Translations under genes and position numbers: made by a program
Origin: a virus
Virus record (IMG/VR): IMGVR_UViG_3300025127_000009
Span: 96,001 to 160,000 of that record
Reading direction: 5' to 3' (one strand)
DNA length: 64,000 bases
Notes under the pieces: generated by a model
The model's database searches: none
What the model was told of the DNA's origin: nothing
The model's input: only the letters and a program-made list of their open reading frames with translations
Shown: positions 3,448 through 40,682 of the stretch, in pieces
Layout of the letters: every line of letters starts with the position of its first letter
Numbering within the stretch: the stretch's first letter is position 1

Positions 3448-4457
3448 TTTCTTACCTCATCGATGTTTTTCCCCACAAAATCTGAAATCTCTTTGTTCAA
3501 GATTTCTAGGCTTTCTAAATAATCTTTCAATTCTTGTTTTGTGACCAAAGATTTAGAACTATCCATTGAATAATCTTTTTCTTCATTAAAGGGCATTGTA
3601 TATGAAGGTGAAACTGCAAGATATTTTTCTACTTTTCTAGTTCTCAGAGACTCTGAATCATTAATAAGGTCTTCGTGTATTTTTTCACCGGGCCTCATTC
3701 CAATTATCTCTATTGGTTTGCCAGAAATTTCAGAAAATATTTCTGCTAAATCTATCACTTTCATCGATTTCAACTCTGGAATCCAGGTTTCTCCTGTTTT
3801 ACCAAATTTCATAGAAGCATCTATCAAGTCAACACTCTCTTCTAAAGTCATAATATATCTTGTCATTCTTTTGTCTGTTACAGTTATTTTTTCTTTGTGT
3901 TCTGATTGATATTTGAACAAAGGTATAATACTACCTCTAGAATTTAATACATTTCCATATCTGACTGCGACAAAATTAATATTTAAGCCTAAATCACTAA
4001 CAGATGTCACTATTCTTTCCGCAATTGACTTACACATACCATAAACATTTATTGGGGAGCATGCCTTGTCTGTACTGACCATTAAAACCGTTTCTAAGTT
4101 ATTTAACTTCTCATGATTGTCTTTTACAACATCAACAACGTTTTCAATTCCAAGAATATTTGTTTTTATGCTCTCAAGAGGCGATTTTTCACATACATCA
4201 ACATGTTTGAGGGCAGATGCAAGTATTATGTGGGTTGGTTTGAAATTTAAAATTGCATCTTTGCATCTTTGTTGGTCTCTTATATCTCCAACAATAAATG
4301 AAAGATTTTCATGACCCATTTCATTCCTGATTGTCCAATGTTTGGATTCATCTCTAGAAAAAACACAAACCTTGTTACTCAAGATGTACCTTTTGATAAG
4401 CGTCTTACCAAGAGATCCAGTTCCTCCAAAAATTAGTATTTTTTTGTTTTTCATCAA
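3444..4457 (-). CDS. UDP-GlcNAc 4,6-dehydratase-like SDR (PseB/FnlA/CapD family)
   Basis: 'GGTGSLG', 'STDKA..P.NVYG..K', 'RYGNV..SRGS.IP.F', 'RPGEKIHE'. Confidence 0.9.
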   Translation of the reverse strand: MMKNKKILIFGGTGSLGKTLIKRYILSNKVCVFSRDESKHWTIRNEMGHENLSFIVGDIRDQQRCKDAILNFKPTHIILASALKHVDVCEKSPLESIKTNILGIENVVDVVKDNHEKLNNLETVLMVSTDKACSPINVYGMCKSIAERIVTSVSDLGLNINFVAVRYGNVLNSRGSIIPLFKYQSEHKEKITVTDKRMTRYIMTLEESVDLIDASMKFGKTGETWIPELKSMKVIDLAEIFSEISGKPIEIIGMRPGEKIHEDLINDSESLRTRKVEKYLAVSPSYTMPFNEEKDYSMDSSKSLVTKQELKDYLESLEILNKEISDFVGKNIDEVRK

Positions 4458-11977: not shown

Positions 11978-12037
11978 GCGCGGACGGGGTGTCTGCGCTG
12001 CTAGGGCCTAGTATGCCGGGGGGAGGGGGAGGGGGGG
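11978..12037. other. GC hairpin plus G-tract (G6-A-G5-A-G7 on + strand)
   Basis: GCGCGGAC/GTCTGCGC stem at 11978-11998, CTAG-ggc-CTAG at 12001-12011, G runs at 12018-12037. Confidence 0.8.
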
Positions 12038-12673: not shown

Positions 12674-12709
12674 ATAAAAAAAAATAATGGGGGGACATTG
12701 CGTCCCCCC
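12674..12709 (-). terminator. Rho-independent terminator
   Basis: GGGGGGAC-5nt-GTCCCCCC stem followed by a T run on the minus strand. Confidence 0.8.
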
Positions 12710-13084: not shown

Positions 13085-13156
13085 TGATGGCCTCCATTCA
13101 ATTATGGCCGCGTAGGGCCGGGTTAAGTTACTGTGACAACCGTTAGTCACATTCTA

Positions 13157-13184
13157 ATAATAGCAGATAATTGGTCGCGGTCAA
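13157..13184 (-). promoter_or_regulatory. sigma70-like promoter TTGACC-16-TATTAT
   Basis: Read directly; TGn extended -10. Confidence 0.7.
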
Positions 13185-13222
13185 GTACTTTTAAAAGAAA
13201 AATTAATTTTTTTTTGTTTCGC

Positions 13223-13241
13223 AATGATTACAGGATCTTAG
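13223..13241 (-). repeat. 19-bp upstream box, copy 1
   Basis: + strand aatgattacaggatcttag; 38 nt upstream of -35. Confidence 0.65.
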
Positions 13242-13244
13242 AAT

Positions 13245-13466
13245 TCACGATTCAAGTTCCTTTTCTAAATCGGTGTCGTTAAAGACTGCCACGATTAGCC
13301 CGTTAAGATCCTCTAATTCTTGCTTGGCATGTACACTCAATCGGGACAGTCCAGGCCGTGACCCTTCCAAGGTCTCTTGGCGCTGATGGGTGAAGTCTTG
13401 CACGACCTCACGCAATAGGGCCAACTGAAATGAATTGAGCAGTACACTATGAAGCGAATGATTCAT
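13245..13466 (-). CDS. Hypothetical early protein
   Basis: AAAGGTG RBS before MNHSL. Confidence 0.55.
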   Translation of the reverse strand: MNHSLHSVLLNSFQLALLREVVQDFTHQRQETLEGSRPGLSRLSVHAKQELEDLNGLIVAVFNDTDLEKELES

Positions 13467-13509
13467 ATGGGTTTCACCTTTCAAGTTGTTTTGCCTCGCT
13501 GACTTTCAA

Positions 13510-13538
13510 AGTATCGCAAAACTAAAAACGAATTGCAA
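13510..13538 (-). promoter_or_regulatory. sigma70-like promoter TTGCAA-17-GATACT
   Basis: Read directly; TGC extended -10; same -10 as at 14499. Confidence 0.65.
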
Positions 13539-13566
13539 ATAAAAATTTAATAAATCGTAAAACCGC

Positions 13567-13585
13567 AATGATTCCAAGTACTTAG
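13567..13585 (-). repeat. 19-bp upstream box, copy 2
   Basis: aatgattccaagtacttag; 28 nt upstream of -35; contains the upstream gene's stop. Confidence 0.75.
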
Positions 13586-13836
13586 ACTTTCCATTTAATC
13601 TTCTCTAACCATTTAGGCTCGCAATTATTAGCCAATAAGAGGAAACGGGCCGCCTTGGCCTTACCCTCTGCTAGGGTGTCCGCTTCCCCTGTCCATTCTA
13701 GGTCGTCCGTAGTCCCTACGACTATCGAGTAGTGATCATCCCGAATGCGCTTGATTAGCGCTAAGCGCTGGCATTCATCCCTTGTTAGCCATTCCGCACC
13801 CCATGTTTCATCGTCGTAGCGTTCCCATTCTAACAT
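13582..13836 (-). CDS. Hypothetical early protein
   Basis: Probable start MLEWERY. Confidence 0.5.
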   Translation of the reverse strand: MLEWERYDDETWGAEWLTRDECQRLALIKRIRDDHYSIVVGTTDDLEWTGEADTLAEGKAKAARFLLLANNCEPKWLEKIKWKV

Positions 13837-13900
13837 TCGGTCATTCCCCGTTAATATATTGACGATAAAAAGGGTTAGAAAACTAACGTGCATCCCCTAG

Positions 13901-13960
13901 ATACACCCCATAACACTCATATACACTCTATGCCACTATAAAACACTTTATACCACATAT
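13901..13960. repeat. Six degenerate 10-bp tandem units with phased CAC
   Basis: atacacccca/taacactcat/atacactcta/tgccactata/aaacacttta/taccacatat. Confidence 0.7.
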
Positions 13961-14274
13961 GCGTATGAGCGTAACCCTAACCACTACTCAGCAAAAATGC
14001 TATCGCTTCTTAGTCCTAACCCAACTATTAGAAACGCTCTTTTTTCTGCTCTTATACTTTGCCATAGTTAACCCTTTATTACAAGTAAAAAATGCAAGGG
14101 GAATCTTTTTTTATCTTTACCCCTTATCGGATAACTCTATAGCGCTTGAGATTTTTTGCCTGCATTCTTGCCTATAAAGATTTTCCTCTGTTCTGTTTTT
14201 TCTCTCTTTTTTCTAGGGACCATCACGAATCATTTTTTCCTCCTACGCGAGAGATTTTTCTGTAATCATTCCAG

Positions 14275-14457
14275 TTACATACACGGGCGAGAGATTTTTT
14301 TGTGCTCTCCTAATCTCACAAACTCTACCTTCTCATGCGGGTGGGTGCCTGAGAGATTTTTCTGTAACCATTCCCATCTATCGTGCAACTGTTCTCTATC
14401 TGATGAGATTCGCATGTACTGTTTCTCGCCTATCTTGAACACTAATTCGTACAGCAT
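14275..14457 (-). CDS. Small hypothetical early protein
   Basis: Directly downstream of promoter 14499-14527. Confidence 0.5.
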   Translation of the reverse strand: MLYELVFKIGEKQYMRISSDREQLHDRWEWLQKNLSGTHPHEKVEFVRLGEHKKISRPCM

Positions 14458-14498
14458 TGGTTACCCTTTTTTATTTTTCTTACCTCGCCGACTTTTAA

Positions 14499-14527
14499 AG
14501 TATCGCAAATTCCAAAATTGAATGCAA
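14499..14527 (-). promoter_or_regulatory. sigma70-like promoter TTGCAT-17-GATACT
   Basis: Read directly. Confidence 0.65.
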
Positions 14528-14554
14528 GAAATATTTTAACTTTCTTTTTTGTCC

Positions 14555-14573
14555 AATGATTTCAATTATTTAG
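14555..14573 (-). repeat. 19-bp upstream box, copy 3
   Basis: aatgatttcaattatttag; 27 nt upstream of -35; contains stop of 14562-14825. Confidence 0.75.
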
Positions 14574-14825
14574 CAGTCCAGAAAACTTTGGGTGACCCTG
14601 TGCCTTGAGCGTATGGACAGAATCAACCACTGCAAAGCATACCTTCTTATCTGTTATCCTTTCATTCTCATAATTGTGCAAAGCGATCAAGGTTTGCAGC
14701 GCCCCATCACTATCGCTTGCCGCTTTCTGTACTGCAGTGTACATATCAAGCGCAGCCTCATGATCTCCGCTTGCATACAGTGTTAGCAACTCGTCACCAT
14801 ACTGATTCACGTTTATGTCTACCAT
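14562..14825 (-). CDS. Hypothetical early protein
   Basis: Overlapping, co-oriented operon. Confidence 0.55.
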   Translation of the reverse strand: MVDINVNQYGDELLTLYASGDHEAALDMYTAVQKAASDSDGALQTLIALHNYENERITDKKVCFAVVDSVHTLKAQGHPKFSGLLNN

Positions 14826-15049
14826 TCCATCTCCCTACAAACTTCCTGAAAAAAACTATCTGGATAGCCATTGTAGTTATATAATCGGCAAGTCGTCCCG
14901 TGATCAAAACCATCTAACTGGCCACCGTCGCCACCATTGGCCATATCGATATATTGTCTCTTGACTTCCCTTAACATGGAAGCGCTGGCCATTGATCCAT
15001 GTGCTTGCATCTCCCTGTAATGCTTGACTATTTGATCAACCGTTTGCAT
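14819..15049 (-). CDS. Hypothetical early protein
   Basis: AAGGA RBS. Confidence 0.55.
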   Translation of the reverse strand: MQTVDQIVKHYREMQAHGSMASASMLREVKRQYIDMANGGDGGQLDGFDHGTTCRLYNYNGYPDSFFQEVCREMEW

Positions 15050-15052
15050 TTC

Positions 15053-15343
15053 TTATCCCTTCCTCATGTTATGTAGGAAAGCGCCGTCATCTACGAAATC
15101 GGCATGCATGCGAGCATACCCTACATGTTTGCTGGTGGTCATAGACTGAAACCCATAATTTGTACCGCTAGTGTAATCACGCGCTATCTTTTGGCCGTGC
15201 TCATTAGTGGTGCCAATAAGCAAACTATAACTGTATAAATTCTGGCCATCGGTGCTAAACTGGCCCGTGCTATTTGCCGCGCCCTGATTCATCGCCCAAT
15301 TACCGGCAACGCTTCGTGTATCTGTTTTAAAGATTCTAGACAT
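15053..15343 (-). CDS. Hypothetical early protein
   Basis: Start moved to MSRIFK (GGAG RBS). Confidence 0.55.
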   Translation of the reverse strand: MSRIFKTDTRSVAGNWAMNQGAANSTGQFSTDGQNLYSYSLLIGTTNEHGQKIARDYTSGTNYGFQSMTTSKHVGYARMHADFVDDGAFLHNMRKG

Positions 15344-15569
15344 ATTCATTCTCCATATCCTCAATTGCGGTTTCACGTAGGCTTTCTGTACTCTCGTTAT
15401 CATAACATGCAAAGCCGCGCAATTCAAGATGATTAATCAATTCCTTGCGATTCATGCTCTTTATGCCTTGCCATGATGTCTCTATGAAAGTACCCTTACG
15501 GGTTTCTAAAATACTTTTCACTGGTGTTTTCTCCCTATTCATTCTGATAATCGTTGCTAGATCCCACAT
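15336..15569 (-). CDS. Hypothetical early protein
   Basis: Probable start MWDLAT. Confidence 0.5.
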   Translation of the reverse strand: MWDLATIIRMNREKTPVKSILETRKGTFIETSWQGIKSMNRKELINHLELRGFACYDNESTESLRETAIEDMENEYV

Positions 15570-15571
15570 GA

Positions 15572-15895
15572 TTAATACTCGGCTCCAATCTTTCTTGTTG
15601 CGTGTATGAGATCTTCCTTGCATATGTTAGTCACGTTAATGAATAACCTTATACCTGCGGACTCGCTACCTCCTACCGTATTGCTCCGGATAAACCGTAG
15701 TTCATGCCACAAATCAACCGCTGCCTGGTAGTTCTCACTAGACACGAACGCTTGAATTTGCCTTGTACACATATCAGTCAGAATAGGCATATTCTTTTGT
15801 TTTTCATATATCTCGTCTAGTCTCTCAAGTAAATCGCGCTCTTCATTCATTTTGGCTAACCTTTGCTCGTTCATCTTGTATACATTAAAGCACAT
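15572..15895 (-). CDS. Hypothetical early protein
   Basis: Downstream of promoter 15884-15912; true start probably slightly internal. Confidence 0.5.
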   Translation of the reverse strand: MCFNVYKMNEQRLAKMNEERDLLERLDEIYEKQKNMPILTDMCTRQIQAFVSSENYQAAVDLWHELRFIRSNTVGGSESAGIRLFINVTNICKEDLIHATRKIGAEY

Positions 15896-15912
15896 AAAAA
15901 AAATTGGCGCAA
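15884..15912 (-). promoter_or_regulatory. sigma70-like promoter TTGCGC-17-TTTAAT
   Basis: TGC extended -10. Confidence 0.5.
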
Positions 15913-15940
15913 GAAAAAAATCGCGAAATCGTAAATCGCG

Positions 15941-15959
15941 AATAAAATCAATTACTTAT
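15941..15959 (-). repeat. 19-bp upstream box, copy 4
   Basis: aataaaatcaattacttat; 28 nt upstream of -35; contains stop of the upstream ORF. Confidence 0.65.
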
Positions 15960-16146
15960 CAACCAAACGTAACACCCTTCTATCAATAGTCTTATACTTT
16001 CCTGATATGTGCATGCATTCCCAATAGCCATCAATAACCGTAGAGGGCTTGACCACCAAATAGAGATCATTGGCCCGCTCTTTCTTAGTGCGTCCCGGTA
16101 CTGATTCTAATACCCTGACAAATGCACCTGGTTTGATCTCATCCAT
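15952..16146 (-). CDS. KOW/SH3-like mini-protein (IKPGAFVRV)
   Basis: Start MDEIKPG; family resemblance to the MKxGDLV array. Confidence 0.55.
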   Translation of the reverse strand: MDEIKPGAFVRVLESVPGRTKKERANDLYLVVKPSTVIDGYWECMHISGKYKTIDRRVLRLVDK

Positions 16147-16405
16147 TATTCTTACCTTTCGCCGGGAAATACTGTAGTCTACCCTGTGCAACCGCATTTG
16201 TCAACTTAATTGCACTATCACACTTCTTAGTGTAACGCACCGTGCCACCTAGTGGCTTCTCTAAATGCCATTCTGGGCTCATCAAGACATAATCAACCAA
16301 TTGAAGCGCTGGCCCATTATCCGTATTAGTAACTAAACCCCATGCCCTATGTGGACCAAAGTAGAACATGTCCCCTACTTTATACTTATTAACTGCCATT
16401 GTCAA
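16139..16405 (-). CDS. KOW/SH3-like mini-protein (YKVGDMFY)
   Basis: N-terminal KVGD motif. Confidence 0.55.
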   Translation of the reverse strand: MTMAVNKYKVGDMFYFGPHRAWGLVTNTDNGPALQLVDYVLMSPEWHLEKPLGGTVRYTKKCDSAIKLTNAVAQGRLQYFPAKGKNNG

Positions 16406-16408
16406 CCC

Positions 16409-16705
16409 CTACCAACACTGATGGTCAATAATACAATCACCGAATGACCACCGGACCTCTGCTAGTGTCCAGCAACCAGGACGACGAAACACTCTATCAG
16501 GATCGCATACCTCCACTAGATGGTGACTATCAGGACAGTCAATATCAGTCTGCCCGTAGTCAAAATCACGAGGACTACAACCGTCGTAAGAGTAGACCAC
16601 ATGGCTTGATACCGTTGTACGTCTCCGAGGCGGATTGTATTCCTCTTCTACTGTAAGAGCACACCCAGTGCTTAAGAGCGCTGCAATCGTCAATAACTTA
16701 ATCAT
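16409..16705 (-). CDS. Cys-rich lipoprotein
   Basis: Start MIKLLTIAALLSTGC (lipobox); GAGG RBS. Confidence 0.65.
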   Translation of the reverse strand: MIKLLTIAALLSTGCALTVEEEYNPPRRRTTVSSHVVYSYDGCSPRDFDYGQTDIDCPDSHHLVEVCDPDRVFRRPGCWTLAEVRWSFGDCIIDHQCW

Positions 16706-16735
16706 GCTTTCCTCGTTTTCCTCACCAACAATTGC

Positions 16736-16765
16736 ATTATAGCGCGAAAAAAAATCAAAAGTCAA
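16736..16765 (-). promoter_or_regulatory. sigma70-like promoter TTGACT-18-TATAAT
   Basis: Read directly. Confidence 0.7.
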
Positions 16766-16780
16766 ATAAAAAATTTTCTT

Positions 16781-16799
16781 AATGATTTCAAGAACTTAG
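16781..16799 (-). repeat. 19-bp upstream box, copy 5
   Basis: aatgatttcaagaacttag; abuts the tRNA-Lys 3' end; 15 nt upstream of -35. Confidence 0.75.
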
Positions 16800-16872
16800 T
16801 GGGTCACCCCGGACTCGAACCGGGAACCAGCGGATTAAAAGTCCGATGCGCTACCAATTGCGCCAGTGACCC
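16800..16872 (-). tRNA. tRNA-Lys(UUU), CCA not encoded
   Basis: Cloverleaf GGGTCAC..GTGACCC-A; anticodon loop CTTTTAA; TTCGAGT T-loop. Confidence 0.95.
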
Positions 16873-17043
16873 TAAAGAGGTGGTTTTATTATATGTAGCC
16901 GCATAGCGAGACCACCTAAACTCGCCGGAGGTAACCTTTAAAAACTACTCTGAATTAGAGCGACCATACGATGAAACCCATTTACCATACCTGTTAATCC
17001 TATCAGATCCCCCAATAAAAAGCAACCAATACCTATTAAAATT

Positions 17044-17304
17044 TTATCCATCGCGATTGTCATCCCTTAATGGCACTAACTCCCTGATAACACTCCTCAA
17101 ATCGTTAGCAATAAACCATTTATCATAATCAAAAACATCTACCATGTTATAAACGGCGCGTTCAAAAGAAAGCCTACGGTTTAAAACATCCTCCGCTTTA
17201 CCCCTTAAATCCTTTTCATACCTGTAGCCCTCTGCTAATATCTCCTCTTTATTCCTTAGAATATCCTCAAGACTATCTTGAAAGGTCATATTACCCCTTC
17301 CCAT
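17044..17304 (-). CDS. Hypothetical protein
   Basis: Follows the vWA gene; probable start at 17289. Confidence 0.55.
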   Translation of the reverse strand: MGRGNMTFQDSLEDILRNKEEILAEGYRYEKDLRGKAEDVLNRRLSFERAVYNMVDVFDYDKWFIANDLRSVIRELVPLRDDNRDG

Positions 17305-18568
17305 CTACTGCAATAACCTTTTCACTAGTGTTAAAGTACGGTTGCCTGTAACCATCGGCATCTGTCAACCACATACGCTGACACTTGCTAGGCTTTGGCT
17401 TTGGAGCGTACATATCTGTCAAGATGATGTGGCCATCAAAGTCACCGCGCTGGTTAACATACTCAGTAGGAGCATTGAAACACGTACCGCCACTGAGAAC
17501 TCGCTCATATTTTCTCTTGTCCCCTTTCTTCCATACATAAATCTTACTCTCATCTACTTTTGTATCGAATGGAACGACTGTAAACTCTGCTAATTCAGCC
17601 AGTTTGTTCAATTCGGAAAAGAACATTGCTAACATCTCGTTACTTACAGATCCTGACTGATCAATTGATACCGCAATCTTGGCAACCCGCGCTTGTTTAC
17701 GGCCCGGATGTACGTATGGAAACCTCCTGTTAATCCTCTTGATAGAACTAGACTTGTTGGCACGTTGTGATGTCTTAACAAAATATCTTAAAACCTTCCT
17801 CCAGTCAATGACTGTCTTGATAGAATCCATAATTTTCTGGCGAGTAGACTGTGATACTGAACCCCACCCATTACTGGACGCGGCTTCCTGTGCTGCGTTT
17901 TTTACAATATCTTTTATACGTTCAGAAGCAATATCCTTTATCTCTTGCGGGCATTTACCCCACCCGCTATGATCATCTAAAGATTCCGGTGCAGGAGTAC
18001 CGCTAGAAGCGCCAGAATCGCCGTCTCCGGGGTTTTCTCCACTAGACCCACCATCGGACCCGTCTCCGCTACTACCTTGCCCAGAATCGCCGTCATTTCC
18101 AGATTGTGTAATGGCCTCTGGCAAGTTAGCAAGATACCATTCAGCGGACATACCTTTAGGCAAATCCTCAAACTGATCTTTACCCGGAATGAGACCACCC
18201 TCGGGCAGATTATCAATGTGGCTATTAATTGCTAAATCAGTAGCAATATTCCAATGTTGCATAGGCACGTTATCAGGCATACGGTCAGTAACATGCTTAA
18301 AAATAATATGGTAGAACTCATGCTTAAGCACTGCCAAGCGTTCTTTGCTGGTTAGAGCCTTAAAGAACTCAGGGTTGTACAACATCTCAAACTGTGCTGA
18401 ATCAGGGTTAACCATAACACCGGCAGTAGGCACCGAAAACGATGCACGCTTATCAATGCGCCGCGATATAGATGCAAAAAATGGCTCTTCTAAAAGCAAT
18501 TTTGCAGTGTGCATATTGAGATCAAAGGTCTGCTCATCCATAACTGTAGTCTCTTGTTGCGTTGTCAT
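17291..18568 (-). CDS. Metallopeptidase-like (HExxH) plus vWA domain protein, MoxR partner
   Basis: 'VLKHEFYH', G/S/D-rich linker, MIDAS 'IDQSGS', 'GGT.F'. Confidence 0.85.
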   Translation of the reverse strand: MTTQQETTVMDEQTFDLNMHTAKLLLEEPFFASISRRIDKRASFSVPTAGVMVNPDSAQFEMLYNPEFFKALTSKERLAVLKHEFYHIIFKHVTDRMPDNVPMQHWNIATDLAINSHIDNLPEGGLIPGKDQFEDLPKGMSAEWYLANLPEAITQSGNDGDSGQGSSGDGSDGGSSGENPGDGDSGASSGTPAPESLDDHSGWGKCPQEIKDIASERIKDIVKNAAQEAASSNGWGSVSQSTRQKIMDSIKTVIDWRKVLRYFVKTSQRANKSSSIKRINRRFPYVHPGRKQARVAKIAVSIDQSGSVSNEMLAMFFSELNKLAELAEFTVVPFDTKVDESKIYVWKKGDKRKYERVLSGGTCFNAPTEYVNQRGDFDGHIILTDMYAPKPKPSKCQRMWLTDADGYRQPYFNTSEKVIAVDGKG

Positions 18569-18574
18569 GATTGC

Positions 18575-18603
18575 ACTATAACCCTATCCAGAACAAATGT
18601 CAA
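18575..18603 (-). promoter_or_regulatory. Promoter TTGACA-17-TATAGT, 6 nt before the ATG (leaderless candidate)
   Basis: -35 overlaps the MoxR stop; no RBS before the vWA ATG. Confidence 0.7.
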
Positions 18604-19676
18604 TTATTTTCTACATCGCCAAGGATTTCAACCAGGAAATCCGACACTGAACGACCATCAACCGATGCCTGATGTAGACTAACAAGATTATCTCTTGCTG
18701 ATTCATCCTCCACTGAACCCATAACCGTCCACAATTTCATAGCAACCTCAGAGGGAAGCATAAAGAAATACCTTGCCACGTTATCCATTTGCTCTTGCGG
18801 CAAGACACTGTGGAAAGTCTCCGCTGATTCAAACTTGGCCACCATAGCAGTATGCTCATTGATACCAAAGTCTGCTAACTTAGAGAAGTCACCCTTGATA
18901 AGAATATCCTCAATAGACACTTGCCTGTCATAGTTAGCAATAAAATCCTTGAATGCTACCGCAGCCTCAAAACCAACAAAAGCACTGGTTAACTGAAACA
19001 ATAGAGCACCATCCTTGCTCTCATAAGCATTGGCATGCTGTAAACACTCGTCTAAACGCTCCCAAGAACGACGGGAAGGATAGACCTTGTTTGGCTCATA
19101 GTCATCGCTATGCTCAAGATGATTGTGGTTATGATTAATAAAATCCCACACTTCCGAGGACAAGCCGGTATCCTTGGCCCAGTTAAGCCAATCATCTACC
19201 GATGGTTCAATATCAAACACAGTCCACCTGTCAAGTTCAGCGGGATCCATCTCGCCTACCTGGTATTGGGCACCGTGCTCGCCACCATTAACAGCAGCAA
19301 ATACAAGGGTGTCATCATGTAGACAGTGGCCATTCAGTTTTCGACTATCTGTCAACTCAAAAATACCCTGACGCACCTCAACTGTGGCACGGTCTACCTC
19401 ATCCAAGAATAGAACAACTGGCTCATCACATGCACGCTTAAACCAATCCGGTGGATTAAAGGAAGTACTATTCCCATTGATAACAGGTAGACCAACAAGG
19501 TCACCTTCGGTCATCTGAGATGCGCGGCGTTCTACCACAGGCAACCCAATGTGGTCAGCATACTGATATACAACGGTAGACTTACCAATACCGTGACGGC
19601 CACGTAAGAGAACTGGCTTGCGAACACCTGTAACGTAACCGACGACGCTACCAAAAGTCTTGAAGTCAACTGCCAT
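18600..19676 (-). CDS. MoxR-type AAA+ ATPase
   Basis: Walker A 'GRHGIGKS', Walker B 'LFLDEVDR', 'AAVN', 'MDPAELDRW', 'PSRRSW'. Confidence 0.9.
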   Translation of the reverse strand: MAVDFKTFGSVVGYVTGVRKPVLLRGRHGIGKSTVVYQYADHIGLPVVERRASQMTEGDLVGLPVINGNSTSFNPPDWFKRACDEPVVLFLDEVDRATVEVRQGIFELTDSRKLNGHCLHDDTLVFAAVNGGEHGAQYQVGEMDPAELDRWTVFDIEPSVDDWLNWAKDTGLSSEVWDFINHNHNHLEHSDDYEPNKVYPSRRSWERLDECLQHANAYESKDGALLFQLTSAFVGFEAAVAFKDFIANYDRQVSIEDILIKGDFSKLADFGINEHTAMVAKFESAETFHSVLPQEQMDNVARYFFMLPSEVAMKLWTVMGSVEDESARDNLVSLHQASVDGRSVSDFLVEILGDVENN

Positions 19677-19727
19677 GATGATTTACTCCTAATGAAAAGC
19701 AGTTAGTTTTTCGTTCTATCTTTTTTA

Positions 19728-19756
19728 ATTATGCACAAACGATTTACATATTGCAA
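19728..19756 (-). promoter_or_regulatory. sigma70-like promoter TTGCAA-17-CATAAT
   Basis: Read directly; upstream of MoxR. Confidence 0.65.
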
Positions 19757-19783
19757 ACAAAAAATGAAAAATCGTAAAAACAA

Positions 19784-19802
19784 AATAAATTCAATTACTT
19801 AG
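19784..19802 (-). repeat. 19-bp upstream box, copy 6
   Basis: aataaattcaattacttag; 27 nt upstream of -35; contains stop of 19799-19978. Confidence 0.75.
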
Positions 19803-19978
19803 CGACTACAACTTTTACAGACATAGCCACCCCACTCTGGCCGTTTAGCATTGGGGAAGTATTCATGGCAATAGAGACAATCCATACCGTAATTATTATC
19901 ACCGTTATGGTATCCCGTATCCCTATCGAACTGGAGACGGTTAGCCCTTGCAACAAATCGTACTCTAGCCTTACCCAT
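19799..19978 (-). CDS. 59-aa zinc-ribbon protein (not in ORF track)
   Basis: Hand-translated MGKARVRF..CLYC..CKSCSR; start coupled to the upstream stop. Confidence 0.65.
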   Translation of the reverse strand: MGKARVRFVARANRLQFDRDTGYHNGDNNYGMDCLYCHEYFPNAKRPEWGGYVCKSCSR

Positions 19979-20271
19979 TAGTCGTCATCCTCTTCTGGCA
20001 TTAATGGTAACAATCCAGCCTTTTCTAACTCCTGCATGTACTCATCAACTGACAAGCCATACTCACTAGCATTATCTGTCATCGCTTGCAGGAAGTCAAG
20101 AATTATTTTTCTAACCGCGTATTCTTTGTTGTCCTCGTCATCTTCAGGGCCACTATCTTTTAAAAGGTTTAATATGCGTTGCCATTCCCAGTTCTTGTGT
20201 TTGCCATTCTCACTCTTATTAACAAAGTCTGTTATTGAGGTAACATTATCCTTGTCGTCATCATCTTTCAT
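19978..20271 (-). CDS. Acidic hypothetical protein
   Basis: GGAGG RBS; coupled stop/start. Confidence 0.55.
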   Translation of the reverse strand: MKDDDDKDNVTSITDFVNKSENGKHKNWEWQRILNLLKDSGPEDDEDNKEYAVRKIILDFLQAMTDNASEYGLSVDEYMQELEKAGLLPLMPEEDDD

Positions 20272-20471
20272 TATTTACCTACACCTTTGGCCATATCAAC
20301 TGAAACAACATACTGATAAGCACCTTTATTATATGCTGGCGCTGTACACTTAGCCTTGCGGGCTGTCTCTACGCGAGCATTAGCAGCGCCGCACTCTAAG
20401 CAGGTCTTATAACCTAACGCTTTTCTTTTGGGGTTGTATTCTTCCCAGCATTCAACACAGATGGCTATCAT
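20271..20471 (-). CDS. Small zinc-finger protein
   Basis: CVEC..CLEC; 'PAYNKGAYQY'. Confidence 0.65.
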   Translation of the reverse strand: MIAICVECWEEYNPKRKALGYKTCLECGAANARVETARKAKCTAPAYNKGAYQYVVSVDMAKGVGK

Positions 20472-20475
20472 AATA

Positions 20476-20658
20476 TTATACCTTTCGCGCTTCGCTGATT
20501 ACTTCCATTTGGTTTTTAGGGTTTGAGGTAGTCATAACTTTTGGCCTGAACCATCTCACCACTCTCACCTCTTCCGTGCCTGGTATTTCCCTGATCACGA
20601 CACCGTGCCAATAGTCCCAAGGCGGCGCTTTATACTTTACTAGGTCACCAACCTTCAT
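20476..20658 (-). CDS. MKxGDLV mini-protein
   Basis: Start MKVGDLVKY; ends EVISEAR. Confidence 0.7.
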   Translation of the reverse strand: MKVGDLVKYKAPPWDYWHGVVIREIPGTEEVRVVRWFRPKVMTTSNPKNQMEVISEARKV

Positions 20659-20689
20659 TTGTTTTCCTCTGCAATCTTTGTATATTTGT

Positions 20690-20718
20690 ATTAAACCAAA
20701 ACAAAAAACAAAATGCAA
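20690..20718 (-). promoter_or_regulatory. sigma70-like promoter TTGCAT-17-TTTAAT
   Basis: Read directly. Confidence 0.5.
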
Positions 20719-20735
20719 GAAAAATTTATTTATTT

Positions 20736-20754
20736 AATAAATTCAAGAACTTAG
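20736..20754 (-). repeat. 19-bp upstream box, copy 7
   Basis: aataaattcaagaacttag; 17 nt upstream of -35; contains stop of 20743-20937. Confidence 0.75.
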
Positions 20755-20937
20755 CACTTCTTTGATAGCAAAGGTTGAGAACACTAAACCCTCACGATGC
20801 CAATCCGGAGCCTTATCCACCCATCGCACCTTTACACCATCAACTGGTGAATTGGGATGATCAGGATACATGTACTTAACATAAGTAACAATGCCCCTCT
20901 CGCCCTTGTTGGTCTCAATTAAATCACCGATTTTCAT
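20743..20937 (-). CDS. MKxGDLV mini-protein
   Basis: MKIGDLIE. Confidence 0.7.
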   Translation of the reverse strand: MKIGDLIETNKGERGIVTYVKYMYPDHPNSPVDGVKVRWVDKAPDWHREGLVFSTFAIKEVLSS

Positions 20938-21130
20938 CCTGCCCCCCTTTAAGTTCTCTTACACAGTCTTCTGGTAGCCACAACTTTTTGCCACTTGTAA
21001 GTAAAACCTCATAATGATACTCATCATCATCGTCGTGATACTCTATATCGTATGAAATTATTACTCCAGTAGAAGAGGCCCACTCACCTAGATCATACCA
21101 TTCTGCGTCAACTAAATCACCGATTTTCAT
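20924..21130 (-). CDS. MKxGDLV mini-protein
   Basis: MKIGDLVD. Confidence 0.7.
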   Translation of the reverse strand: MKIGDLVDAEWYDLGEWASSTGVIISYDIEYHDDDDEYHYEVLLTSGKKLWLPEDCVRELKGGQDENR

Positions 21131-21294
21131 GCCAACACCTCAAATTCATAACCCCACCATTTTTCTTTCTTTCCGCTACCAGCAACCATAACACACCAAA
21201 GGTTAGTTTGACCGTAGGCATTACCGTGGGCATTTCCTGTTATTATCCCCACCTCGCGTCTCATAACGTGTTCAACCAAATCACCGACGTTCAC
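21127..21294 (-). CDS. MKxGDLV mini-protein, 55 aa (not in ORF track)
   Basis: GTG start, MNVGDLVEH..FEVLA; ATGA-coupled. Confidence 0.65.
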   Translation of the reverse strand: MNVGDLVEHVMRREVGIITGNAHGNAYGQTNLWCVMVAGSGKKEKWWGYEFEVLA

Positions 21295-21460
21295 TGATAA
21301 CCTCCAGTAAACTAGTCTCTACAGGCATTGATGAATAATCATAAAGCAATACATAGCCTTGTAGTGGTGCAGATTTTCTAACAATATGTATTTTTCTAGT
21401 TTTCTCTTGGGTTCTGTTAAAAGGATTCGGTCTAAATCTTACTAAATCACCGGCTTTCAC
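21281..21460 (-). CDS. MKxGDLV mini-protein
   Basis: GTG start VKAGDLVRF within the junction repeat. Confidence 0.7.
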   Translation of the reverse strand: MKAGDLVRFRPNPFNRTQEKTRKIHIVRKSAPLQGYVLLYDYSSMPVETSLLEVISERR

Positions 21461-21647
21461 TGATAACCTCCACTGTATCTTGTGTACACCAGAATACACC
21501 GTAGTTAAACCAATTTACTTTTATTGGGTCTGGCTTGTCTAATTGAGTGTACGGCATTACATCTACCACAATACCGTGTACGTTGTCAAGATAAGGTACG
21601 CCAAACTTGTTGTGTTTTTTTACTAGTGTTCCGACCTTGATTTTCAT
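21447..21647 (-). CDS. MKxGDLV mini-protein
   Basis: MKIKVGTLV; ends EVISESR. Confidence 0.7.
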   Translation of the reverse strand: MKIKVGTLVKKHNKFGVPYLDNVHGIVVDVMPYTQLDKPDPIKVNWFNYGVFWCTQDTVEVISESR

Positions 21648-21892
21648 GGCAAACTCTCAATTTCTACTGTTGAATCCCAAGTTACATCGCCGTTCTGCCA
21701 AAGTATTTTATGTCTAACTGGCCTCGATTCCTTTTCACCGTGCGGTTTCATCCACTGTGAATCTAGTATGATTCCAAATGTTCTACTTTTCCATAATCTA
21801 TCAGTTCCACAAAATATATCATACTGACGAGAGGACTCGCTCCACTGCACAGAATCACCTTTCTTTGGGTGATGTGAAATTGAATCAGTCAT
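21644..21892 (-). CDS. KOW-like mini-protein
   Basis: 'KKGDSVQW..FGIIL..KILWQNG'. Confidence 0.6.
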   Translation of the reverse strand: MTDSISHHPKKGDSVQWSESSRQYDIFCGTDRLWKSRTFGIILDSQWMKPHGEKESRPVRHKILWQNGDVTWDSTVEIESLP

Positions 21893-22078
21893 CTTTGTTC
21901 TTCTTCATTTTTGAAGTGAACCTACCGTAGTTACCCATGCCATCGTAGTCCATCGTATCCTGGTTTGGCTCATCTCGCTTTTTTTCTTTTTGAATGTTAT
22001 CACCTGATTTAAAAAAAGTCAAGCCTTTAATTAGTGATGTCCAAAAATCAATCATTAACTTCCCTCGCTATTTTTTAA

Positions 22079-22107
22079 ATCATACTAAACAAAATTTTGA
22101 AAGTCAA
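22079..22107 (-). promoter_or_regulatory. sigma70-like promoter TTGACT-17-TATGAT
   Basis: Near-identical promoter at 27599-27627. Confidence 0.6.
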
Positions 22108-22349
22108 CATTTTTTTAAATTTTGTTTAGTCGCCAGGACTATATCCTTGTCATCAGCGGGCCACCAATTAGCGTTATTAACCGCCGCTGTCCAACTGCCA
22201 AAGTCTTTAACATCGTCAAGCCATACTATCAAGAACTCTTCAATATTACCATCGGCCCACTGTTCTCTTGATTTGGTCACCAGGCCCATTGCACCCGTGC
22301 CACAATAGTGATCATGAGGCTTGTATATCACTAGATCGCCTACCTTCAC
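22104..22349 (-). CDS. MKxGDLV mini-protein
   Basis: GTG start in the junction repeat. Confidence 0.7.
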   Translation of the reverse strand: MKVGDLVIYKPHDHYCGTGAMGLVTKSREQWADGNIEEFLIVWLDDVKDFGSWTAAVNNANWWPADDKDIVLATKQNLKKC

Positions 22350-22542
22350 TGATAACCTCCAGTTTATCTTCTTCGTGCCACATTACACTAGAGTGAACTG
22401 TATTCCACCTTACGCGAACGTTTCTATGGTTGTCAGGGCCGTGAAGGGGACTAAACTCTAAGACTATGCCAACGTATTGATTATGTACACGGTCTGATAT
22501 ATACCTGCTCTTCTTGTACGCTATCAGGTCACCGACTTTCAC
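22312..22542 (-). CDS. MKxGDLV mini-protein
   Basis: GTG start VKVGDLIAY; contains EVISEGR near the C-terminus. Confidence 0.7.
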   Translation of the reverse strand: MKVGDLIAYKKSRYISDRVHNQYVGIVLEFSPLHGPDNHRNVRVRWNTVHSSVMWHEEDKLEVISEGRRSSDIQAS

Positions 22543-22732
22543 TGATAACCTCAAACTCGCTTGGCTTATGTAGTTCGGGCTTGCGACCAGGATAAGCCAC
22601 TTTTATCAATCTTCCTGTGCCTAATATGCCGCCTGAATCTGCATCTGTACTTAAGCAAATTGCTACGGCTCTTTTTTGTTGGTGCAACTGTAACATGCCC
22701 CAGCGCTTTACTACTAAATCACCTTTTTTCAT
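22529..22732 (-). CDS. MKxGDLV mini-protein
   Basis: MKKGDLVV; ends EVISESR. Confidence 0.7.
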   Translation of the reverse strand: MKKGDLVVKRWGMLQLHQQKRAVAICLSTDADSGGILGTGRLIKVAYPGRKPELHKPSEFEVISESR

Positions 22733-22842
22733 CTCTTAAACTCCCAATACGCTACTGATAACGCTATCAACATTAGTACACCAAGGATTACATACTCGGT
22801 GAATCCGTCTATCTGCATACTAACCATTGCGGCTTCATTCAT
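22729..22842 (-). CDS. 37-aa single-TM peptide (not in ORF track)
   Basis: MNEAAMVSMQIDGFTEYVILGVLMLIALSVAYWEFKR; GAGG RBS; ATGA-coupled. Confidence 0.6.
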   Translation of the reverse strand: MNEAAMVSMQIDGFTEYVILGVLMLIALSVAYWEFKR

Positions 22843-22945
22843 TTTTACCTCTGTATCCCCAATACAAACTACCAAAGAAGAGGAAGTCTGCTATAGCACC
22901 GTAGAGTAGCGGAGCGTCTAATATATACTGAGTTAAAGTAAACAT
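22835..22945 (-). CDS. 36-aa hydrophobic peptide (not in ORF track)
   Basis: MFTLTQYILDAPLLYGAIADFLFFGSLYWGYRGKNE. Confidence 0.5.
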   Translation of the reverse strand: MFTLTQYILDAPLLYGAIADFLFFGSLYWGYRGKNE

Positions 22946-22946
22946 T

Positions 22947-23117
22947 TTATTGTTTCATTGGATAGATATAATCAATATGTGATTCTATCTTTTTACCGTC
23001 GCGACCCAGTAATTTTATCCATTCGCTATCTTCCTTTACTGGGCCAAGCGAAAGAAACGGACCTTGAAATCCGAGCGCTTCACCATAATCTACTCTTACT
23101 AATGTTCCCGCTTTCAT
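22947..23117 (-). CDS. MKxGxLV mini-protein, 56 aa (not in ORF track)
   Basis: MKAGTLVRV; AAGGA RBS. Confidence 0.6.
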   Translation of the reverse strand: MKAGTLVRVDYGEALGFQGPFLSLGPVKEDSEWIKLLGRDGKKIESHIDYIYPMKQ

Positions 23118-24518: not shown

Positions 24519-24693
24519 TGAATTTTCCTTTCTCCATTTGTTCACATGCAATAATATCAAAAATTGTTTTTGTTTTCAACCTTTTTTTTAAAATATATGC
24601 GGCCTGTCTTTTTGAAATGGCTATTGAAACTTTGAAAACGGAATATGCTTCTTGTGATTGATCCAGTTTATAACACCAAGTTCTAAAAAGCAT
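24511..24693 (-). CDS. Small hypothetical protein
   Basis: GGAG RBS. Confidence 0.45.
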   Translation of the reverse strand: MLFRTWCYKLDQSQEAYSVFKVSIAISKRQAAYILKKRLKTKTIFDIIACEQMEKGKFSA

Positions 24694-31497: not shown

Positions 31498-31785
31498 TGG
31501 TGGAGGTGGCGGGACTCGAACCCGCGTCCAGAATTTCTCAAATAGTACGTCATTCACAAGGTTAGTTAGTTTTAGGCTCTAACAAGCACACGCGACAAAA
31601 GACAAAAAATTTGCAACTTTGGGTTTCAAGGTTGTTGCCACCCCGAGACAATTAAGCAGCGAGTGCGAAGTCGTCTAATTCAACGTCATTATTTGCGTTT
31701 ATATTTTTTGGGTATTTTTACTGTGCCTACCCACACAGCCTTGCACGCAGTATTATCCTCACCCTGTCGAAACCAAGTCACCCCC
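31498..31785 (-). ncRNA. ssrA: tmRNA, tag ANNDVELDDFALAA
   Basis: 5' GGGGGTGAC..TTTCGAC; 3' GGTTCGAGTCCCGCCACCTCCACCA; G3-U70 pair; tag ORF 31652-31696. Confidence 0.95.
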
Positions 31786-37869: not shown

Positions 37870-37911
37870 TTAGTGTACCCTTTTTCAACTAATTAGTGCT
37901 ATTTTATAAGA

Positions 37912-37935
37912 AAAGAGGAGCAAATGCTCCTCTTT
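37912..37935. terminator. Intrinsic terminator (bidirectional-type)
   Basis: AAAGAGGAGCA-AA-TGCTCCTCTTT. Confidence 0.8.
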
Positions 37936-37962
37936 AATTATACAGGTTGCGGGTTATATTTT

Positions 37963-40591: not shown

Positions 40592-40682
40592 TGAAAGGAC
40601 CTCCTGCTTGGTGTGGTTAAATTAACAAAAACAGCGACCCATATAGAAGTGACAACCTACAAGATAAATAGACTTAAATATC

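Follow-up and report, generated by a model that had tools for sequence, protein, structure and literature searches.

The stretch of DNA considered here, hereafter the window, comprises 64,000 nucleotides and corresponds to bases 96,001-160,000 of the IMG/VR virus record IMGVR_UViG_3300025127_000009, a phage genome of 192,597 bp with a guanine-plus-cytosine content of 37.8% that is complete according to CheckV. All of the large open reading frames (ORFs) lie on the minus strand. A 19-bp sequence, hereafter the box, recurs seven times in the window, on the coding strand only, and the copies occupy no more than 7.5 kb of the 192.6 kb of the genome. Among the gene products are a terminase, a portal and a major head protein of the T4 type, together with DnaE, DnaB, GroEL, a class II ribonucleotide reductase, five tRNAs and a transfer-messenger RNA (tmRNA). 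Judged by the large terminase subunit (TerL), its nearest cultured relatives are Flavobacterium phage immuto (43.5% identity), Microcystis phage Mel-JY01 (42%) and the T4-like cyanophages (32%). A megablast search of the region against GenBank phages returned zero matches, so none is close at the DNA level, and protein searches of GenBank phages found distant relatives only; IMG/VR and metagenome collections hold many relatives, with an ATPase 58-85% identical, and a scan of metagenomes gave no relative above 85% amino acid identity. The box is used by one clade of uncultured marine far-T4-like phages, to which this phage belongs.

A search with the pattern CTAAGTNNTTGAWWTYATT finds six minus-strand copies with zero or one mismatch, at positions 13567, 14555, 15941, 16781, 19784 and 20736, against a chance expectation of 0.28 for the window, and six copies were reached in none of 100 shuffles. 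The seventh copy, at 13223 (CTAAGATCCTGTAATCATT), has three mismatches and owes its membership to context only. Across the whole genome of 192,597 bp, no further site was found at up to two mismatches, confining the box to this cluster, and twelve scattered three-mismatch sites on both strands were judged to be background. An eighth, partial copy at 18621-18639, consisting of the half-box TTGAAATCCTT, lies in the 3' end of the ATPase gene and precedes the promoter of the next gene at a gap of 17 nt. Every copy is followed, in the same order, by an AT-rich spacer, a -35 hexamer of the TTGAC or TTGCA type (TTGC- in five of the seven boxed promoters), a spacer of 16-18 nt, a -10 hexamer, in some cases extended (TGn), a Shine-Dalgarno sequence and a start codon; the promoters and Shine-Dalgarno sequences are canonical, and promoter type and gene content together suggest that the promoters are early. 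The distances from box to -35 are 38, 28, 27, 28, 15, 27 and 17 nt for the copies at 13223, 13567, 14555, 15941, 16781, 19784 and 20736, respectively. In five cases, the stop codon of the upstream gene falls within the box: two genes end with a TAA at box positions 2-4, two with a TGA at 10-12 and one with a TAA at 6-8. The gene upstream of the copy at 13223 stops 3 nt ahead of it, and the last base of the tRNA-Lys gene, at 16799/16800, coincides with box position 1 or with the base preceding it. The initial annotation, made from the letters of the window, had described seven coding-strand copies with sigma70-like promoters at these same gaps, five stop codons inside the box in different frames and one copy abutting the tRNA; the description proved accurate throughout, with six copies strong and one degenerate, and the ORF coordinates agree with it.

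Followed in the direction of transcription, the modules formed by box and promoter all lie on the minus strand. Module 1 (20690-20754) consists of the box at 20754-20736 (CTAAGTTCTTGAATTTATT), a 17-nt spacer, the -35 TTGCAT at 20718-20713 and an extended -10 (TGGTTTAAT) ending at 20690; it would drive the genes in 20718..19799, and the gene at 20937..20743 ends in its box with a TGA at positions 10-12. Module 2 (19728-19802) has its box at 19802-19784, a 27-nt spacer containing TTTTACGATTT, the -35 TTGCAA at 19756-19751 and the -10 CATAAT at 19733-19728, and is placed to drive an AAA ATPase gene (19676..18600) and a DUF2201/VWA gene; the gene at 19978..19799 contributes a TAA at box positions 2-4. 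The partial eighth module (18575-18639), with its half-box at 18631-18621, continues into the -35 TTGACA at 18603-18598 and the -10 TATAGT at 18580-18575. In module 3 (16736-16799), a perfect box (16799-16781) stands right after the discriminator base of tRNA-Lys (UUU; 16799-16872) and is followed by a 15-nt UP-like spacer (AAGAAAATTTTTTAT), the -35 TTGACT at 16765-16760 and the -10 TATAAT at 16741-16736. Module 4 (15884-15959) carries the box at 15959-15941 (ATAAGTAATTGATTTTATT, a perfect match to YAANNNNTTGATW), a 28-nt spacer with phased CGATTT units, the -35 TTGCGC at 15912-15907 and the extended -10 TGCTTTAAT, and the gene at 16197..15952 stops there with a TAA at positions 6-8. Module 5 (14499-14573) comprises the box at 14573-14555, which holds at positions 10-12 the TGA of the gene at 14825..14562, a 27-nt spacer, the -35 TTGCAT at 14527-14522 and the -10 GATACT at 14504-14499. 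Module 6 (13510-13585) comprises the box at 13585-13567, with the TAA of the gene at 13893..13582 at positions 2-4, a 28-nt spacer again containing TTTTACGATTT, the -35 TTGCAA at 13538-13533 and the -10 GATACT at 13515-13510. Module 7 (13157-13241), whose box at 13241-13223 is the degenerate one with three mismatches, has a 38-nt spacer, the -35 TTGACC at 13184-13179 and the -10 TATTAT at 13162-13157. The box-promoter region is closed by a strong intrinsic terminator at 12689-12709 on the same strand (GGGGGGACGCAATGTCCCCCC, then a T-run). Just after the promoter of module 7 (~13133-13150, minus strand), the 5' leader opens with the perfect palindrome GTGAC-N8-GTCAC, followed by a GGCC...GGCC hairpin, which may serve as an operator or form a structure in the RNA. 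Just downstream of the terminator, a 209-bp intergenic gap holds a C-rich run (CACCCCCCCTCCCCCTCCCCCCGG) and GC-rich sequence at 11990-12035 (minus strand).

The box is a feature of the family and not a quirk of one genome. Related loci were taken from IMG/VR and oriented on the ATPase gene; an early iterative position weight matrix drifted onto the starts of a group of small paralogous genes, the KVGDL genes described below, and later analyses used consensus-mismatch or half-box criteria. In 80 related loci, variants with at most two mismatches were found 47 times on the coding strand vs 18 times antisense, and a relative of 192,821 bp (G001) carries eight coding-strand copies in the equivalent region, clustered within 16.6 kb. 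When only the 3' half (TTGAWATYATT) was searched for, a promoter lay downstream of 54 of 132 coding-strand matches vs 3 of 78 antisense ones. At the in-phase half-box sites, AA was present at positions 3-4 in 35 of 44, and the 5' half therefore belongs to the motif and is not a selection artefact. The consensus of 42 non-redundant boxes is nTAARTnnTTGAaATYATT, with conservation starting abruptly at position 2; in the longer gap classes, it runs on as gAgnTTTTACGATTT (flank +1 to +15), giving ~34 bp in all. An exact scan of IMG/VR with the box yielded mostly single, scattered matches. One conceivable account of this distribution is that the box is functionless and repeated only through the duplication of whole promoter modules from a few ancestors. 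The modules are clearly paralogous and have been copied within genomes, but the box is conserved while neighbouring spacers and promoter details diverge, spacer length is constant while spacer sequence changes, and the box is kept across phages whose ATPases are just 65-76% identical, which makes an absence of function very improbable.

The distance between box and promoter is periodic. Box-plus-promoter instances were collapsed into 55 sequence clusters, in which the non-redundant gaps measure mainly 15-19 nt (21 clusters), 26-28 nt (17 clusters) or 38 nt (4 clusters). Two clusters have a gap of 12 nt, and there are a few stragglers, in most of which the box is weak. A period of 10.25-10.75 bp fits best; for boxes with at most two mismatches (n=29), R=0.70 with a Rayleigh p of ~6e-7, and 0 of 20,000 sets under a period-scanned uniform null reached the observed phasing value. 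The phasing was replicated on metagenome contigs, where 18 clusters dissimilar to the first set gave R=0.61 (p ~0.002), with peaks at 27-28 nt and individual gaps of 17, 18, 21, 22, 25, 27 (five clusters), 28 (five clusters), 37, 41 and 59 nt. Within a gap class, spacer length is held while the sequence varies, the spacers being built of one, two or three T-tract units, and if transcription is taken to start 7 nt downstream of the -10 hexamer, the boxes are centred near -62, -73 and -83. The initial annotation had proposed a binding site for an activator, possibly an injected protein, acting on one face of the DNA. The box is fixed in orientation, has a sharp 5' edge and is conserved in diverged phages, its gap classes lie one turn apart and the phasing was replicated, all of which favours a protein site on one helix face; as to the binder, the sequence points to a host protein of the IHF type in place of an injected one.

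A further reading gives the box a role in RNA, as a processing site or 3'-end signal of the upstream transcript or tRNA. Its position would suit such a role, since each upstream cistron has its 3' end there and one copy comes right behind the discriminator base of tRNA-Lys, and a terminator scan found no intrinsic terminator between the units. Yet inspection of the sequence revealed no inverted repeat or hairpin potential in the box, no Rfam match was found, and an RNA element would have no reason to be locked in phase to the next -35 at multiples of 10.5 bp; we regard this explanation as extremely improbable.

A further proposal of the initial annotation was that the box is a recombination junction assembling an array of promoter-plus-gene cassettes. 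Whether through exchange of the PeSL type, named after the promoter-early stem-loop elements of T4-type phages, or through site-specific exchange, recombination is unlikely to be its primary function. The region is certainly hyperplastic, with gene content between conserved anchors differing in nearly every relative, and upstream ORFs stop inside the box in 22 of 40 clusters, in all three frames. In locus L141, two modules with unrelated flanks hardly differ between box position 9 and the -10 hexamer, and a comparison of L135 with L141 reveals a 700-bp gene inserted between a gene stop and the 3' half of the box; this inserted gene, however, has no box or promoter of its own, and genes are gained and lost inside box-to-box units. 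Where tRNA-Lys is followed here by a box-promoter module, it is followed directly by a gene in the relatives checked. In L140, L144, L145 and L149, that gene encodes a small membrane protein (..CFFASL..AHAERFGIFIGLWAPTLM..) and has no promoter; it is absent here, and a lipoprotein-like gene comes after the tRNA and the module.

Tyrosine (PF00589) and serine (PF00239) recombinases are both absent from the 192.6-kb genome, with control genomes positive, so the annotated lack of an adjacent recombinase in the window extends to the entire genome. In 156 loci, the conservation of adjacency of unique gene pairs was 0.57 at tight junctions, 0.52 at gaps, 0.40 at box-less promoters and 0.41 at box junctions (95% confidence interval 0.26-0.57): promoter-bearing junctions as a class break more, the box adds nothing, and synteny is broken at boxes no more often than at box-less promoter junctions. 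At the nucleotide level, breakpoint mapping is limited by the near absence of box-bearing pairs that are closely related. Helical phasing to the -35 would, moreover, play no role in recombination. What stands of the cassette-array idea is that the stretch from box to -10 has been copied as a unit within genomes, and a PeSL-like side effect of this copied module is plausible.

The indel junctions that can be demonstrated lie not at the box but at the gene-start repeat of the KVGDL genes. These paralogous small genes (starting M/V-K-V-G-D-L-V; window 20476-23117) are joined by the conserved junction GAGGTnATCAGTGAAAGTCGGTGATTT. Among the near-identical contigs L153, L154 and L155, whole-gene indels fall exactly at this junction (L153:1265-1279, L155:129-329 and L154/L155 near 5660), and the ends of the mosaic block in L179/L186, from a distant clade, coincide with it as well. 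The box and the 5' ends of KVGDL genes (e.g. 20920-20937 and L154:5640-5665) have 12 of 15 specified positions in common (AAGTnnKTGAWWT), a likeness that may reflect chance (rough post-hoc p ~0.03) or common descent. It is doubtful that the box is the target of a phage-specific protein, injected or immediate-early, that also reads KVGDL gene starts and couples promoter control to cassette exchange. If this were true, the regulation of early 'ORFan' genes and their diversification would be joined in a single system.

The resemblance that bears most directly on the identity of a binder is to sites of the DNA-bending protein IHF. The IHF consensus reads WATCAANNNNTTR, or YAANNNNTTGATW on the other strand (as cited in PMC8942017 and PMC5963220). 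Box positions 2-14 (TAARTNNTTGAWA / YAANNNNTTGAWW) fit YAANNNNTTGATW except at one position, and the copy at 15941 matches the complement of the IHF consensus perfectly. Conservation over the 42 boxes is high at the consensus positions: T2 in 37, A3 in 41, A4 in 39, T9 in 35, T10 in 38, G11 in 38, A12 in 36 and W14 in all 42. A dA+dT-rich tract ~8 bp from the WATCAA side, another feature of IHF sites, is present next to the box, where the T-tract at +5 to +8 in the long gap classes forms, on the other strand, an A-tract 9 bp from WWTCAA. Box and flank together (~34 bp) thus read A-tract-N9-WWTCAA-N4-TTA on that strand, and the lambda attP sequence reads A6-N8-TATCAA-TTTG-TTG at the H' site, with a comparable layout at H2. 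No gene of the HU/IHF family (PF00216) was found in the phage, and a host protein would therefore be used. The consensuses of CRP, Fis, OmpR, Lrp, DnaA, LexA and MarA, compared by eye, did not fit the box. Nor does the box represent an overlapping upstream promoter, its TTGAWW being followed by a -10-like hexamer only in some of the copies with a gap of 17 nt.

We favour, with a little better than even probability, the reading that the box serves an architectural activator, most likely host IHF, as an upstream site whose effect depends on the face of the helix, and that it forms part of a portable promoter module. The box would form the distal element of this module of ~65-95 bp, in which it is followed by one to three T-tract units of ~10.5 bp and by -35 and -10 hexamers of the sigma70 type, and the module would serve a subset of the promoters used by the host RNA polymerase, probably early ones, in one clade. 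The candidate ligand is a sequence-specific DNA-bending architectural protein, with host IHF as the leading candidate, and we infer both that it binds and that it activates rather than represses. The sequences themselves establish the motif with its orientation, conservation and phasing, as well as the limits of the module and the likeness to IHF sites. The bend would have to face RNA polymerase from a fixed side of the helix, which is why the box would be tolerated only at whole-turn distances. Together with the phased T-tracts, the bend may draw upstream DNA around the polymerase, or around its alpha C-terminal domains, and so strengthen promoters with a sub-optimal -35. The TTGC- hexamers described above are consistent with dependence on an upstream helper, and they equally allow a phage-encoded activator of a delayed-early set. 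Because it is repeated, the module is also copied or converted between sites, and it lies flush against upstream genes that borrow its TAA or TGA as their stop; module copying and borrowed stops are read as consequences of the module and not as its function.

Several observations weigh against this reading. A minor, well-conserved series of gaps at 12 and 21-22 nt lies about half a turn out of phase, and the promoters are paralogous, so that the clusters used for the phasing analysis are not fully independent and the division into gap classes may in part be inherited from a small number of ancestral modules. The one position deviating from the IHF consensus is box position 13, where T is expected but 28 of the 42 boxes have A, 10 have T and 4 have G, so that the A of WATCAA is usually replaced by T. 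Nor does the E. coli consensus account for the conserved RT (positions 5-6) and T-Y-A-T-T (positions 15-19) of the box or for the ACGA core of its flank. That the host possesses IHF is itself presumed, and the nearest cultured phage by TerL (43.5% identity) has Flavobacterium as its host. On the other hand, the promoters are of the canonical TTGACA-17-TATAAT form, early genes have strong Shine-Dalgarno sites and the tmRNA tag ends in FALAA, features that argue for a host outside the Bacteroidota with standard sigma70 and Shine-Dalgarno use. The tmRNA is of the one-piece type (window 31498-31785, tag ANNDVELDDFALAA); its 3' 32 nt are identical in 21 bacterial genomes from many phyla, with a full-length match in none. 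A DegT-like gene, searched for a bacterial relative as a clue to the host, yielded none.

Conserved positions beyond the IHF consensus may instead suggest another specificity, namely that of a regulator encoded by the phage or injected with the virion, acting either as a class-I-type activator of a delayed-early set or as a later shut-off repressor. TF1 in phage SPO1 is an example of such a later-acting repressor. This alternative to a host factor is possible, though we consider it rather unlikely. In its favour, the box is restricted to one clade, its promoters lie at the distal end of a leftward early region ending at a terminator, and it accompanies only a subset of sigma70-like promoters; many others, both here and in the clade further removed, lack the box and have only an A-rich UP-like tract and a perfect TTGACA. 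A simple repressor, on the other hand, would be unusually located at -62, -73 or -83, the phage has no HU/IHF-family gene to supply such a protein, and a comparison of ~47 window proteins with Pfam revealed no recognisable DNA-binding domain, which is weak evidence as most of these proteins are ORFans. One box-less promoter subclass, composed of the A-rich tract AAAAAAGTTAAAAAAGTTC, TTGACA, 17 nt ending in TGA and GATAAT (an extended -10), is found in far-clade loci L162-L173 and at 24551-24579 of the window and is very uniform in the distant clade.

Among known systems, the PeSL elements of T4-type phages are the closest, the module sharing all but their defining stem-loop. As described in PMC2839356 and PMC4122927, PeSLs consist of a stem-loop, an AT-rich tract, a sigma70 promoter, a Shine-Dalgarno sequence and a start codon and are repeated in hyperplastic regions. 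The boxed modules likewise place an upstream element ahead of an AT-rich tract, sigma70-like -35 and -10 hexamers, a Shine-Dalgarno sequence and a start codon, and both are composite, repeated in hyperplastic small-gene regions of T4-related myoviruses, copied between sites and associated with variable gene content. The PeSL stem-loop is terminator-like, whereas the element here is an asymmetric 19-bp box without self-complementarity, the terminator scan having found no hairpin at any copy, and helical phasing between element and promoter, present here, is not mentioned for PeSL in the parts of PMC4122927 consulted. The box also differs in adding no synteny breakage beyond that of the promoter. 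As for PeSL-type indels bounded by the element, adjacency at box junctions equals that at box-less promoters, and one insertion ends inside a box, in a data set with no close box-bearing pairs.

In mode of action, the module resembles class I activation and the phage promoters assisted by IHF or UP elements. IHF sites such as lambda attP H' and H2 have in common with the box the YAANNNNTTGAWW core, the A-tract 8-9 bp from the WATCAA side, a length of ~34 bp and asymmetry; the box departs from them at one consensus position and in its extra conserved positions (RT 5-6, T-Y-A-T-T 15-19 and the ACGA flank). Lambda pL and Mu Pe are IHF-stimulated phage promoters, and here too a candidate site would stand upstream of an early phage promoter. 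Class I activator sites, exemplified by CRP at -61.5, -72.5, -82.5 and -92.5, are matched by the steps of one turn between box centres at ~-62, -73 and -83, but the box is not a CRP sequence, is asymmetric and not a dyad, and has a minor out-of-phase series. UP elements and the curvature of phased A/T-tracts occur in strong promoters, including the rrnB P1 UP element and SP82 Alu156. The spacers next to the -35 are similarly runs of A/T-tracts with a ~10-bp repeat, whereas the box is a specific 19-mer beyond the UP region and not a generic A/T tract.

Two other elements were seen outside the boxed modules. A 380-bp stretch of the window (13894-14274) contains no convincing minus-strand ORF and has no match in related loci; three plus-strand repeats of GAGAGATTTTTCTGTAAYCATTCC occur at 14249, 14351 and, as a shorter copy, 14287, and these are possible iterons or a small RNA. 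In intergenic regions genome-wide, the motif ACTAWTTAWT (ACTAATTAAT, ACTATTTATT) recurs shortly before the Shine-Dalgarno sequences of late-type genes, upstream of structural genes, as at 37870-37962 and 40592-40682 of the window and 915-1045 and 3914-3998 of the genome, and is a candidate late promoter.

Hardly any work has addressed the early promoters of uncultured marine phages. Surprise at the present finding is limited by the fact that IHF-assisted and upstream-activated phage promoters are already well known. The occurrence of the same box at 17, 27-28 or 38 nt from the -35, reached by adding T-tract units of about one turn, amounts to a natural face-of-helix experiment and provides a testable rule by which this promoter subclass may be recognised in metagenomic phage genomes. 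There is in addition a hint of a host factor, IHF, and through it of the type of host, and the modules offer compact natural promoter parts. For the far-T4 lineage, the finding shows that portable promoter modules of the PeSL style exist there, with a box that is a putative protein site replacing the stem-loop.

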